Assembly: GCA_019634005.1 (NCBI GenBank)
Contig: JAHQWD010000003.1
Span: 67,725 to 131,724 of the forward strand
Origin: Candidatus Kaiserbacteria bacterium
GTDB lineage: Bacteria; Patescibacteriota; Minisyncoccia; Phycocordibacterales; UBA918
Direction of reading: 5' to 3'
Length of the DNA stretch: 64,000 bases
Both the position numbers and the translations under genes were made by a program. Position 1 is the stretch's first letter. Each line of letters starts with the position of its first letter. Under the pieces are notes generated by a model. The model did not search any database. It was not told where the DNA came from and saw nothing but the letters and a program-made list of their open reading frames with translations. Of the stretch, positions 8,895 to 57,775 are shown in pieces.

Positions 8895-9476
8895 ATGATC
8901 ACCGTAGTTGGACTACAAAACCCAGGGGCAGAATATACAAACACTCGACATAATGTGGGAGAGATGGTCGTGCGTGCATTCCAAGAGAGACACAACCTTC
9001 CTTCCTTTGTTCCGTCATCACAATACGCAGGAGAAATCTCCGAAGGAGTGGTTGACGGACAAGAGGTACGACTTCTTCTCCCAACTACGTATATGAATAA
9101 AAGCGGAAGTGCGGTTAAGAAGGCACTTCATCTTCCCGAAGGTCTCATTGTTGTCCATGACGAACTGGCGCTCCCGCTTGGGGAATTTAAAATTGGATAC
9201 AACCAGGGAGCAGGGAGCCACAATGGCGTGCAATCTATTATTGATGCACTTGGCATGAAAGCGTTCACAAGACTTCGTGTTGGTATCTCACCAACTTCAT
9301 TCTTTGGAAATATGAGACCACCAAAAGGAGAGAGGCGAGCAAAGTTTGTATTGCAGACGTTTTCTAAGAAAGAGATGTCTACAGTTGAGGCAATGCTGCC
9401 GGAAGTACTTACTGCACTTGAGACAATACTTACACAGGGGAGAGAGAAGGCGATGAATCAGTTTAATGTGTCATGA
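8895..9476 (+). CDS. pth: Peptidyl-tRNA hydrolase
   Basis: N-terminal [18 protein letters not shown] and the HNG catalytic region (GAGSHNGV). 193 aa. Confidence 0.9.
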
Positions 9477-10584: not shown

Positions 10585-10619
10585 CCCCTTCTCGACGCAA
10601 GTTGAGAAGGGGTTTCTTT
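10585..10619 (+). terminator. Intrinsic terminator (ccccttctc/gagaagggg 9-bp stem plus TTTCTTT) ending the putative plus-strand ncRNA
   Basis: Seen in sequence. Confidence 0.45.
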
Positions 10620-10620
10620 A

Positions 10621-10652
10621 TAAAACCACCCAGCGCACGCTGGGTGGTTTTA
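10621..10652 (-). terminator. Bidirectional terminator (ccacccagcg/cgctgggtgg stem flanked by AAAA/TTTT) downstream of rpsA
   Basis: Perfect 8-10-bp inverted repeat with flanking A-run and T-run. Confidence 0.55.
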
Positions 10653-10663
10653 TAAAGAGGGAA

Positions 10664-11845
10664 CTAATCCTTCTTAAATGCCAGTGTCATCTTCTGTTCA
10701 TTTGGCTCAAAGAGCGTAATGGTGAACGGATAACTCTGTCCAAGTGAGAGGGTGTTCTTAAGGTCCTCCTCACTCTCAAATTCGGAGATGTGTACGAGAC
10801 CCGCAACACCTTCCTCGATAGACACAAGCGCACCGTGCTTGTTGTATTTAATAACTGCACCGTTAACCTCTTGGTCCTTCTTGTATTTCTTCGCTGCGCC
10901 AACCCATGGGTTTTCACGAAGCTGCTTGATTGAGAGTGAAATCTTGTCATCCTTCACTTCAATAACTTTCACCTGCACCTTGTCTCCAACTTTAAAGCGA
11001 GATCGTGTGTCTTCTACGAGACCCCAATCAAGTTCAGAGATATGTACGAGTCCTTCAAGTCCTTCCTCAAGTTTGACGAAGATACCGAAGTCCACTGCGC
11101 CAGTCACTTCTCCATCGAGCACATCACCAACTTCGTACTTGCTGACCTTTTCTTCCTTCTCTTCTTTCTCCTGAGGTCCCTTCTCTGAGAAGATAAGCTT
11201 TCCTTCGTTCTGGTCTGCGGTGATGATAATCACTGAAAGGAATGTACCAACAAGATTCTGAAGCTCTCCGAGGATACGATCCTTATCTCCATCTTCAACA
11301 CGTGGATAGTGCTCTGATGAAAGTTGTGATGCTGGAAGGAATCCCTGGATACCCTGCCAATCAAGGATAAGACCACCCTTGTTTGCTTCTTTCACTTCAA
11401 GTGAGAGCACCTTCTTCTGCTTCACTGCCTCTTCTGCGTCACTCCAGATAAGTGCCTGGCGTGCCTCACGGAGTGAGAGCTCGATGTAGCCATCTTCGTT
11501 TGATGCATCGACTACCTTTGCAGCGATTGCATCTCCGACAGATACCTTGCGAAGGATATCACGCGCATTCATGTACTCTCGTCCGTAGATGATTCCAGAA
11601 CCAAATGGTGGAAGATCTATAAAGACACGCGCACGTCCAAGCGCTGATACCGTTCCTTCAATAATTTCACCTTCCTGAGGGGGAAGGGGACTTTCTGCAA
11701 CAAATGCCTCCATGGTACCTGGCTTTGCATCTACCGCAGGGGCTTTTTTCTCTTTCTTGGGCATTTCTGCACCAAGTTCTTCTGCTTTTCCTCCAGAAAC
11801 AGCAGAAACAATTCGGTCTAATACCGATGCTTTTTCTTCTGACAT
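10664..11845 (-). CDS. rpsA: 30S ribosomal protein S1 (short, about four S1 domains)
   Basis: Repeated S1-domain signatures (GxV..I...G.FV.L..g..GL.HISE), for example GEIIEGTV...GIIYGREY and GDVLDGEVTGAVDFGIFVKL...GLVHISEL. Confidence 0.85.
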   Translation of the reverse strand: MSEEKASVLDRIVSAVSGGKAEELGAEMPKKEKKAPAVDAKPGTMEAFVAESPLPPQEGEIIEGTVSALGRARVFIDLPPFGSGIIYGREYMNARDILRKVSVGDAIAAKVVDASNEDGYIELSLREARQALIWSDAEEAVKQKKVLSLEVKEANKGGLILDWQGIQGFLPASQLSSEHYPRVEDGDKDRILGELQNLVGTFLSVIIITADQNEGKLIFSEKGPQEKEEKEEKVSKYEVGDVLDGEVTGAVDFGIFVKLEEGLEGLVHISELDWGLVEDTRSRFKVGDKVQVKVIEVKDDKISLSIKQLRENPWVGAAKKYKKDQEVNGAVIKYNKHGALVSIEEGVAGLVHISEFESEEDLKNTLSLGQSYPFTITLFEPNEQKMTLAFKKD

Positions 11846-12041
11846 ATAATGTTATTTCCGACGATACGTATTCGTACAACTGTGTCTCATGGCCGTGTCC
11901 GTGAGTACGAGGTTACGCGTATGCCGTTAGAACTAATAAACCTTAGTAGGCGAAGAGAGTATAGTATAAAAGCTATATATTGTCTATAAAAAAAGCCAAG
12001 ACGAAATGTCTGGGCTTGACGCAAAGAGGAACAGTTGGAAT

Positions 12042-12175
12042 GACCCGACCGTGGTTCGTGCGGAAGGCGCACAGGGGGTGGGGTGAAGGGCCTTCGCGAA
12101 CCTACGGTCGGGTCTAGCAGGAATCGTCACGGGTGTGTCGAGGTGGGTAACGATTCCTAACTGATCGGTATCCTA
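12042..12175. ncRNA. Highly structured RNA element of unknown class in a 450-nt intergenic region
   Basis: A 19-bp near-perfect helix: gacccgaccgtggttcgtg (12042-12060) pairs with cgcgaacctacggtcgggtc (12095-12114), with only two GU wobbles. A second 8-bp helix aggaatcg/cgattcct (12119-12126 / 12151-12158) follows. The enclosed loops are GC-rich. Strand unresolved. Confidence 0.3.
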
Positions 12176-12297
12176 CAGGGCTCCTCTTCCTTTGTCAACA
12201 GAAACAAAGATTGGACTCAAGACTATTTATAGAGCATACAAAGCATCTATTGCTGTCAACATACAGATACGCATACTTCTGATATACTCTAGTCCAT

Positions 12298-12921
12298 ATG
12301 GTAATCACACATCACGGTGGGCAGAGTTTTAAAGTCTCATTTGGAGACACAACACTCGCCTTCGATCCAACATCAAAAGCGTCAAAGACGTTTGATGTAG
12401 CTAAGTTTGGTGCAGATGTTGCACTTATCTCAATGAATCATCCAGATTTCAATGGGGTGCAAGAAGTGACGTATGGGAGCAAGGAGCCGTTTGTCGTATC
12501 GGGTCCTGGAGAATATGAGGTAGGAGATGTGACTGTGCGTGGATACGGAGTTGAGACAATCTATGATAAGGAAAAGCATTTCAATACCATTTATCAAGTG
12601 ATGCTCGAGGGCATGAATCTTGTATTCTTGGGAGCACTTGGGGATGCAGCCATTGATCCAAAGATACTTTCAGAATTTGGTGATATAGATGTCCTCTTTG
12701 TTCCTGTCGGAGGTGGGGACGTTGTTGATGTTCCCGCAGCTTCGAAATTGGCAACAAAGCTTGAGGCGAAGGTCATTATCCCGATGCATTATGACAAGAA
12801 AGCGCTTGATGCATTCCTTAAAGAAGAGGGCAGCAAGAATGGAAAGCCGCAGGAGAAACTGACACTGAAACGGAAAGATCTCAGCACACTCTCGGGAGAG
12901 ATTGTTGTCCTTGCACAATAG
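12298..12921 (+). CDS. MBL-fold metallo-hydrolase (about 207 aa)
   Basis: HHGGQSF at the N-terminus, followed by a histidine/aspartate pattern typical of the small metallo-beta-lactamase fold. Confidence 0.7.
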   Translation: MVITHHGGQSFKVSFGDTTLAFDPTSKASKTFDVAKFGADVALISMNHPDFNGVQEVTYGSKEPFVVSGPGEYEVGDVTVRGYGVETIYDKEKHFNTIYQVMLEGMNLVFLGALGDAAIDPKILSEFGDIDVLFVPVGGGDVVDVPAASKLATKLEAKVIIPMHYDKKALDAFLKEEGSKNGKPQEKLTLKRKDLSTLSGEIVVLAQ

Positions 12922-17690: not shown

Positions 17691-18218
17691 ATGCATATGA
17701 AACAAATTGGATTTTGGACAGTACTACTTACGGTTTTCTTTCTAGCACCGCAAGTTTCTTTTGCGCAGAGTTGGCTCACTGAAGATGAGAATCCGCCATT
17801 CACACGTTTTGAGAACCAAGAATCTGGTGATACTTCAGGAACAACGGTAGGTGGAAATCCTCCTGCTTCGGGTGAGGGCACCACAGTAGGTGGGAATCCT
17901 TCTGCTACAGGTGATGGTACTACAGTAGGTGGAAATCCTTCTGGTCAACCAGGTCGATTGTCAAACCCGCTTGGTGATGATACGAACTCTCTTCCAAAAT
18001 TCCTTGAATCCATTCTTGATATTATCCTTGTATTTGCCGTACCTGTCATTGTCTTCTTCATTATTTACGGTGGATTTCAGTTGGTAACAGCACGAGGGAA
18101 TGAGACGAAAATTAGTAATGCTCGGGCAACCATTACTTGGGCGGTTGTCGGTGGAGTCATCATTCTTGCTGCAGAACTCATTCTCAGTGTTATTGTAGCA
18201 ACTATAAATGCCTTGTAA
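17691..18218 (+). CDS. VirB2/TrbC-like mini-pilin paralog 1, with 3x G-T-T-V-G-G-N-P repeats
   Basis: Signal peptide (AQVSFA|QS), a repeat-bearing spacer, then two hydrophobic helices separated by a short basic loop (VFFIIYGGFQLVTARGNETK...), which is the VirB2/TrbC topology. Confidence 0.45.
   Translation: MHMKQIGFWTVLLTVFFLAPQVSFAQSWLTEDENPPFTRFENQESGDTSGTTVGGNPPASGEGTTVGGNPSATGDGTTVGGNPSGQPGRLSNPLGDDTNSLPKFLESILDIILVFAVPVIVFFIIYGGFQLVTARGNETKISNARATITWAVVGGVIILAAELILSVIVATINAL
17835..17950 (+). repeat. Tandem approx. 45-bp repeats (3 copies) encoding GTTVGGNP(S/P)A(S/T)G(E/D)
   Basis: Seen in sequence inside CDS 17691..18218. Confidence 0.6.
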
Positions 18219-54553: not shown

Positions 54554-54705
54554 TAAAATAGTTCCTCTTCAAGAAAACTTGACGAAAAGATAAACTTCGA
54601 TACACTAAGATCACACTATGATTTCATTTACACATTACATGCCAAAGCGATGGACAAACCTCGGGAAGGTGTGTTTTGTTGGTATGTAATCTGGAGAAAC
54701 TACAA

Positions 54706-54750
54706 GAACCAAAAATGCCCTTCTCACCCGAGAAGGGCATTTTTGGTTCT
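54706..54750. terminator. Perfect 44-nt palindrome / bidirectional terminator (aaccaaaaatgcccttctc-accc-gagaagggcatttttggtt)
   Basis: Seen in sequence. Confidence 0.6.
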
Positions 54751-54846
54751 TGTATCTCCGTTGTCGATAGGCTGGTGGCGTCTAGAATCCACCAGCCTGG
54801 CGCCAGCGGGGCGCCATTGATCTTTTACAGGAGAGGAGAAGGGCAT

Positions 54847-57733: not shown

Positions 57734-57775
57734 TCTCCCTGTACACAGAGGGTGTGTTAAAGCCATTTTGAGTGG

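Follow-up and report, generated by a model that had tools for sequence, protein, structure and literature searches.

A predicted small RNA gene between rpsA and a divergent MBL-fold gene in a Candidatus Kaiserbacteria genome

The rpsA-MBL spacer and the predicted transcript

The stretch of DNA analysed here, referred to as the window, consists of 64,000 nucleotides (nt) of contig JAHQWD010000003.1 from a Candidatus Kaiserbacteria bacterium (assembly GCA_019634005.1), and the subject is a GC-rich, strongly structured element in one of its intergenic regions. The S1 gene, rpsA (10664-11845, minus strand), and a gene for an MBL-fold protein (12298-12921, plus strand) are divergently arranged, and the element lies between their two promoters in a spacer of 452 nt. 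This setting agrees with a preliminary description made from the sequence alone, as does the contrast in base composition: the GC content in 100-nt windows is 0.61-0.65 in the element and 0.34-0.45 in the A/T-rich flanks. The 80-nt peak of 0.68 is the highest among all 20 intergenic regions of the window, and a search of the 64 kb for a second copy found none, so that the element is single-copy there. The element belongs to neither the MBL-fold nor the rpsA mRNA. On a slight balance of probability, it is the body of a stand-alone, non-coding small RNA (sRNA) gene, lineage-specific and predicted to be read from the minus strand, which is the strand of rpsA. The features on which this reading is built are the following.

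12283..12288, plus strand: -10 hexamer of the MBL-fold gene, TATACT, its end 9 nt away from the ATG (12298)
12233..12259, minus strand: promoter-like site P1, with the -35 sequence TTGACA at 12259-12254, a 15-nt spacer and the candidate -10 sequence TATGCT
12170..12198, minus strand: promoter-like site P2, TTGACA, 17 nt, TAGGAT, with 10 of 12 consensus matches and a predicted start at ~12163
12179..12190, minus strand: segment GGAAGAGGAGCC, complementary to the 3' tail and part of the transcript only if transcription starts from P1
12118..12159, minus strand: hairpin 1, 13 base pairs (bp) including two G.U pairs, with a 16-nt loop, CCACCUCGACACACCC, of unpaired probability 1.00
12042..12114, minus strand: hairpin 2, stems of 11 bp and 5 bp separated by a bulged A, then inner pairs and an apex rich in C that contains CCCUUCACCCCACCCCCUGUG
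12017..12041, minus strand: tail, a 25-nt pyrimidine-rich single strand, AUUCCAACUGUUCCUCUUUGCGUCA, unpaired at 0.84 in the transcript from P2
11988..12016, minus strand: terminator-like hairpin, a 9-bp stem with one mismatch and a 5-nt loop, followed by U7
11958..11986, minus strand: rpsA promoter, TAGACA, 17 nt, TATACT, directly after the U-run and marking the 3' boundary of the RNA
11846..11951, minus strand: rpsA 5' leader, a conserved separate element behind its own promoter and directly before the rpsA ATG

The folding of the two hairpins is far from what is expected by chance. Among the 75-nt local folds of the spacer (452 nt), the most stable has an energy of -44.3 kcal/mol, compared with -24.4±2.7 kcal/mol and a minimum of -31.4 kcal/mol in 60 mononucleotide shuffles, which upholds the earlier claim that the long helix is unlikely to have arisen by chance. 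The helix itself exists at 12042-12114 and is slightly smaller than first described, with 18 bp on the plus strand (11 bp, a 1-nt bulge and 7 bp) and one G.U pair instead of 19 bp with two. The helix has one more G.U pair on the plus than on the minus strand, and the segment has energies of -43.1 kcal/mol on the plus and -39.3 kcal/mol on the minus strand. The second stem-loop of the preliminary description, formed by AGGAATCG and CGATTCCT, is also present (12118-12159) and is longer on the minus strand, where 13 contiguous bp including two G.U pairs give -16.4 kcal/mol, compared with 9 contiguous bp plus three more and -13.0 kcal/mol on the plus strand. The minus-strand G.U pairs become A.C mismatches on the plus strand, which explains why only 8 bp had been seen before.

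The strands also differ when the region is taken as a whole. Against dinucleotide shuffles, the segment 11990-12200 has a z-score of -7.63 on the minus and -3.04 on the plus strand, and the corresponding values for the unit alone are -7.7 and -4.3. The promoter-like sites called in the spacer, P2 and the rpsA promoter, all lie on the minus strand. Only on the minus strand does a run of seven T follow the terminator-like stem-loop (12016-11994), and this U-run ends one base from the -35 sequence of rpsA; a strict terminator scan missed this hairpin because of the mismatch in its stem. Taken together, the fold z-scores, the pairing of hairpin 1, the terminator and the promoter-like sites indicate that the minus strand is probably the functional one. 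Two marks of an independent sRNA gene, a promoter of its own (a consensus match with a predicted start) and a Rho-independent terminator, are present in the sequence. A stand-alone sRNA was one of five options in the preliminary description, and it is the option that gains from the P2 site, the minus-only terminator and the strand-specific pairing.

A second start further upstream is suggested by P1, which stands back to back with the MBL promoter. Its TTGACA keeps a distance of 38-39 nt to the MBL ATG both in the window and in two related loci, L164 and L168, and occupies the same alignment column in L166; the equivalent in L168 has a proper, scored -10 sequence (TTGACA-16-TACTAT). The -10 sequence in the window is weak, and the promoter scan did not call P1. 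In the folding model, the tail motif changes from an unpaired probability of 0.84 in the P2 transcript to 0.11 in a transcript of P1 length, where it is held in a closing stem. These values hint at two isoforms that would differ in the pairing of the tail. The element contains only short open reading frames (ORFs) without plausible start contexts, and no plausible ORF or peptide was found in it. A 61-aa ORF (11887-12072) and a 48-aa ORF (12130-11984), both on the minus strand, begin within the hairpin region and cross the terminator; a small-ORF or type I toxin reading was dropped for want of a plausible peptide.

The proposed RNA would be transcribed from ~12163 by way of TTGACA-17-TAGGAT, and possibly also from ~12225 by way of the upstream TTGACA, and would end at the U7-tailed hairpin (12016-11988), giving a transcript of ~170 nt, or of ~235 nt from the upstream start. 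It would consist, in order, of a short 5' end, the 13-bp hairpin with the C-rich 16-nt loop, the long bulged hairpin, the 25-nt tail and the terminator. Unpaired positions in the unit are 48% C and 6% G. Three C-rich motifs are unpaired at 0.84-1.00 in the short (P2) transcript; at least two of these accessible motifs are carried on hairpins, namely CCACCUCGACACACCC and, in the apex of hairpin 2 at 0.85-0.87, CACCCCACCCCCUG, which together span 0.85-1.00. By analogy with the 6C and CcsR RNAs discussed below, we infer that the RNA may act by base pairing through its C-rich loops: the exposed CACCUC, ACACACCC, ACCCCACCCCC and UGUUCCUCU would pair in trans with G-rich stretches of target RNAs and would need no chaperone.

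The spacer in related genomes

The source of the window is an uncultivated member of the Parcubacteria (Patescibacteria), and its exact MBL protein is recorded at NCBI under Candidatus Kaiserbacteria. The comparison covered 160 S1-anchored loci, from Kaiserbacteria or Paceibacterota metagenome-assembled genomes (MAGs), together with the nearest relatives reached via the MBL protein (P0002 with 89%, P0003 and P0004 with 83% and P0005 with 80% protein identity). The divergent MBL-rpsA arrangement is conserved among them, and the length of the spacer ranges from 94 nt to >2 kb. In L164, the nearest relative, identity to the window is 88% at the nucleotide level in the S1 coding sequence, 91% from the U-run to the rpsA ATG and 79% in the MBL coding sequence. 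Even the loci of MBL orthologues with 83-89% identity do not contain the element, and most MBL orthologues lack it. Searches with blastn, blastn-short and nhmmer, run with the element against 162 S1-anchored loci, matched only the source contig. Two covariance models were also used, a single-sequence model built on the window and a two-sequence model built on the window and L169. The first, run over 167 sources, gave a weak match in L169 as its sole match, and the second found no new member over 100 loci. Further relatives (P0006, P0007 and P0009) have an assembly gap or unrelated spacers at this position.

The preliminary description had named two results that would count against it, non-conservation of the helix and a degraded inverted repeat present in several copies. 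The former is largely what was found, since the helix is missing from the nearest relatives; this argues against a riboswitch-like element and not against a lineage-specific sRNA. The latter found no support, with one copy in the window and none in ~170 related loci, viral contigs, phages or plasmids. Exact-pattern scans of viral contigs gave one chance match inside a high-GC phage coding sequence, and blastn against phage and plasmid collections gave no match.

What occupies the site in other genomes is highly variable. In relatives, the MBL-rpsA spacer may be empty, may contain small ORFs or inserted genes, or may carry between one and four unrelated units built of promoter, hairpin and terminator, and these units lie on the rpsA strand. 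L164 carries two tandem units (1900-2510), and L166 and L169 at least one each. In L168 (1740-2510), four TTGACA promoters are present, three of them paired with terminators; its promoter-like sites number seven, five of them on the rpsA strand, compared with 1.4 expected from shuffles, and its terminator-like sites six compared with 0.6. Promoter and terminator calls exceed the shuffle expectation in the unit loci of L164, L168 and L169. Seven of eight units in relatives are strongly folded, with z-scores between -4.2 and -7.3; the eighth, L168_uA, has -2.1. Unpaired positions pooled across 14 units are 34% C and 9% G. In pairwise local alignments among the 14 units, only two units of L168 are similar to each other, and these share the 14-mer ACGGAAGGTGTGTT. 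The U-run abuts the rpsA -35 sequence in every relative with a unit. Judged from these sequences, the spacer is a turnover hotspot.

Several further observations concern the same site. An ORF of ~60 aa with a zinc-ribbon-like CxxC...CxxC pattern occupies the spacer in L118, L054 and L055, and a short hydrophobic ORF is found in L034; the hotspot therefore also accepts small protein genes. Assemblies break at the spacer in two MAGs (L022 at ~2630-2710, and L170), with poly-G/poly-C and N runs, which fits a structured or variable sequence that assembles poorly. A 'CCAAC(A/U)GUUC' motif after the long hairpin, recognised by eye as common to L013 and L019, did not generalise.

One unit may be related to the element of the window. 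The L169 unit just upstream of the rpsA promoter has the same position, the same strand and the same order of parts (hairpin, long hairpin, tail, terminator), and TTGACT-16-TATATT stands at the relative position of P2. The two units have CACCU in loop 1, ACCCCAC in the apex of hairpin 2 and the exact 9-mer UGUUCCUCU in the tail in common; among ~100 loci, this 9-mer occurs at -330 to -50 of the rpsA leader only in the window and L169. The stem sequences of the L169 unit differ from those of the window. On this sequence comparison, the odds that the L169 unit is a true homologue are roughly even. In the same locus, an array of tandem units extends over 440-1850, and ~1.3 kb contain no ORF longer than ~90 aa and include a hairpin with a CCUCCUCCCUC loop.

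A number of these and other results weigh against an sRNA gene. The RNA body is 45% identical to the corresponding region of L164, which is the level of shuffled sequence (46±1%), and neither covariance model finds a further member in ~170 related loci. The L169 match scores 14.5 bits, inside the 12-18-bit noise that is obtained on both strands with filters off, so that scores alone cannot establish homology, and pairwise alignment does not single out L169. The hairpins of the body are predicted from folding, and the depletion of G in loops of minimum-free-energy folds is partly an artefact of folding. Promoter, terminator and both ends of the transcript are predicted features, and the -10 sequence of P2 (TAGGAT) is mediocre. 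No convincing target emerged when the 69 gene starts of the window were scanned for duplexes and motifs; the best duplex, of -25.9 kcal/mol at 57750, falls inside a promoter region. Many genes also look leaderless, and a general anti-Shine-Dalgarno role would thus have few substrates.

Alternative explanations and comparable RNAs

The element had also been considered as a riboswitch or 5' leader of the MBL-fold gene, which begins 130-250 nt downstream on the plus strand. The plus-strand fold is indeed stable (-83.5 kcal/mol, z = -3.0), the long helix has its extra G.U pair on this strand, and G-quadruplex-like or ligand-binding structures are conceivable for the G-rich loops. These points are outweighed by the position of the MBL promoter. 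In 84 of 85 related loci, a -10 hexamer, mostly TATACT or TATAAT, ends 5-14 nt (mostly 9 nt) short of the MBL ATG, which leaves the mRNA effectively without a leader and places its start downstream of the element. Scans of the spacer found no plus-strand promoter upstream of this -10 hexamer and no plus-strand terminator. In 22 of the 85 relatives, the distance from the MBL ATG to the rpsA leader is <170 nt. With most MBL orthologues lacking the element, hairpin 1 weaker on the plus strand and no Rfam match, a leader function for the MBL-fold gene is very unlikely.

Two observations were made beside this promoter. A -10-like hexamer ~9 nt (5-14 nt) before the start codon was recognised by eye at many genes of the window (among them those starting at 8895, 48018, 45940, 59484 and 13353), and from these sequences leaderless mRNAs appear to be widespread in the organism, with little use of Shine-Dalgarno sequences. 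Long GC-rich perfect palindromes with arms of 15-20 bp, often with GCAAAGC or GCGAAGC loops, stand directly beside the MBL -10 region in several relatives, among them L162, L131, L019, L016, L011 and L111, and none is present in the window; they may serve for bidirectional termination, for insulation or as operators.

A role in cis for rpsA was also considered, as the element lies on the same strand, directly upstream, with its U-run one base from the rpsA -35 sequence, and as the arrangement recurs upstream of rpsA in relatives. Such a module could work by attenuation, with transcription from P1 or P2 either stopping at the hairpin or continuing into rpsA, by transcriptional interference at the rpsA promoter or by titration of S1. 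Pyrimidine-rich single strands are the classic ligand of S1, and the predicted P1 and P2 isoforms would differ in the pairing of such a strand, the tail. The element is not, as had been proposed, the 5' leader of rpsA: the element and its terminator precede the rpsA promoter, and the leader is the segment 11951-11846 behind it. It resembles ribosomal-protein autoregulatory leaders, such as that of E. coli rpsA, in lying directly upstream of rpsA on the same strand, and differs from them in lying upstream of the rpsA promoter and in ending at a terminator. The promoter and leader of rpsA are kept in all relatives, including those without an upstream unit. Neither an alternative anti-terminator fold nor a conserved sensing domain can be recognised, Rfam gave no match, and the body is not conserved, unlike those of known attenuators or riboswitches. 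On these grounds, a cis-acting module is decidedly unlikely.

A structured insertion without any RNA function, left by recombination or horizontal DNA and acting at most as a terminator, an insulator or a T-rich upstream element of the rpsA promoter, is also unlikely, and the evidence on it is divided. The body cannot be aligned between close relatives whose flanks are conserved, the GC content is well above the genome average, and the content of the site varies from nothing to ORFs and hairpin units. The 22 relatives in which <170 nt separate the MBL ATG from the rpsA leader show that the region is dispensable, and the U-run that abuts the rpsA -35 sequence in every unit-carrying relative would suit an upstream promoter element. 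However, these genomes are small and densely coded, and neutral filler should drift to AT and lose its structure, whereas seven of the eight units in relatives have z-scores at or below -4.2 (the exception is L168_uA, at -2.1). In several genomes, a consensus -35 sequence, a terminator and C-rich loops occur together in independent units. A terminator would also lack an object, as the MBL-fold gene is divergent and no upstream gene on that strand needs to be terminated.

The least credible explanation is a divergent housekeeping RNA (SRP/4.5S RNA, RNase P RNA, 6S RNA or tmRNA) or a miniature inverted-repeat mobile element, which we regard as having hardly any chance of being correct. The element is GC-rich, structured and about the size of 6S or 4.5S RNA, and its long helix is an inverted repeat. 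The search on both strands that the preliminary description had proposed was run with cmscan against the 4227 families of Rfam 15 over 11840-12310 and found no family match at E <= 10, which leaves the suggested RNase P or SRP-like RNA without support. The families covered include SRP (RF00169), RNase P (RF00010/11), 6S (RF00013), 6C (RF01066), RsaE, ar14/CcsR and the riboswitches. The sole alignment at E <= 10, to RF02278, scores 15.4 bits against a gathering threshold of 50 and is a chance match to the terminator hairpin and U-run. At the gathering threshold, the whole window yielded nine tRNAs only, and 20 related loci yielded nothing relevant. The predicted fold has two hairpins and a tail and not a single bulged rod, and the missing conservation in close relatives rules out an essential RNA. 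A mobile or repeat element was rejected for its single copy in the 64-kb window, with none in ~170 related loci, viral contigs, or phage and plasmid collections. Retrons, TIGR and CRISPR-like arrays were set aside from the sequence alone, without a dedicated test, as the locus has no repeats and no associated genes.

Among known sRNAs, those with C-rich loops offer the closest parallels to the predicted RNA. RsaE/RoxS of the Firmicutes is a conserved sRNA with C-rich motifs and a known regulon that acts in trans on G-rich ribosome-binding regions. The predicted RNA is like it in presenting unpaired C-rich motifs on hairpins followed by an intrinsic terminator, and unlike it in that there is no homology and that many genes here appear to be leaderless. 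In the 6C RNA of Mycobacterium tuberculosis (B11/6C), C-rich loops pair with G-rich segments of mRNAs without Hfq or ProQ (PMC6486639). Both it and the predicted RNA are small, stand-alone RNAs whose stem-loops have runs of C in their loops, with no similarity in sequence or to the covariance model. The 6C RNA is conserved across high-GC Gram-positive bacteria, whereas the candidate is confined to one or two genomes, is larger, and is predicted to have a long bulged hairpin and a pyrimidine-rich tail.

The CcsR ('cuckoo') RNAs of alpha- and betaproteobacteria carry CCUCCUCCC loops (PMC8034643). The common points are two hairpins per RNA with C-rich loops of anti-Shine-Dalgarno type, and a locus that undergoes duplication and rearrangement; a CCUCCUCCCUC loop is even present in the L169 unit next to the possible homologue. 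In contrast to CcsR, the loops of the window contain CACCUC and ACCCCAC and not CCUCCUCCC, there is no DUF1127 gene nearby, and no Rfam match is obtained. The copies within a CcsR locus are alike, whereas the units described here are mutually unalignable save for one pair in L168.

A broader proposal, which is speculative and rather improbable, is that the spacer functions, in the Kaiserbacteria-like clade, as a site set aside for rapidly exchanged 'sRNA cassettes', in which one to four tandem units (TTGACA promoter, strongly folded hairpins with C-rich loops of anti-Shine-Dalgarno type, terminator) are swapped wholesale among close relatives whose flanking promoters and rpsA leader remain 90% identical. 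If so, the exchange could reflect diversifying selection, for example in conflicts with phages or hosts, or a modular retuning of translation in largely leaderless organisms. It would also be the first sRNA system described in the Candidate Phyla Radiation (Patescibacteria); a literature search found no description of regulatory small RNAs in this group. A body that is replaced between conserved flanks, with tandem unrelated units in sister genomes, is odd for streamlined genomes, and the units, if expressed, would suggest fast-evolving riboregulators. The candidate sRNA gene of the window, with its promoter-like site, two hairpins, C-rich loops and terminator, is delimited well enough to be a concrete target for the mapping of metatranscriptomes. 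Until expression is shown, the interest of the element is modest.

The rpsA leader and other observations

The segment between the rpsA promoter and the rpsA ATG is a firmer new feature than the GC-rich element. The promoter equivalent was called by the scan in L164, L168 and L169, and its sequence is also kept in L166. The leader itself was found by nhmmer in 106 related loci and has no counterpart in Rfam 15. RNAalifold, applied to 42 leader sequences, predicts two helices (CGGCAYACG/CGURUCGYCG and CCGNNC/GNNCGG), in which 98.3% of the pair cells hold standard pairs and compensatory double changes occur in 10 of 15 pairs. These values were reached by none of 500 shuffles, and slid controls gave 18-47% pairing. 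The 3' arm of the outer helix abuts a GGAA that shortly precedes the ATG; a position after GGCC accepts a variable hairpin as an insertion, and at the 5' end a covarying hairpin can be recognised by eye. The leader is probably an autoregulatory element of S1.

Two further types of repeat were noted in the window. Three direct repeats with a period of 39 nt and 82-86% identity (17838-17943) may be an in-frame repeat within a gene. Perfect inverted repeats occur at 54701-54754 and 10615-10658, with arms of 25 bp and 21 bp, respectively, and 2-4 nt between the arms; the repeat at 10615-10658 is located a short distance downstream of rpsA and probably serves as a bidirectional terminator.

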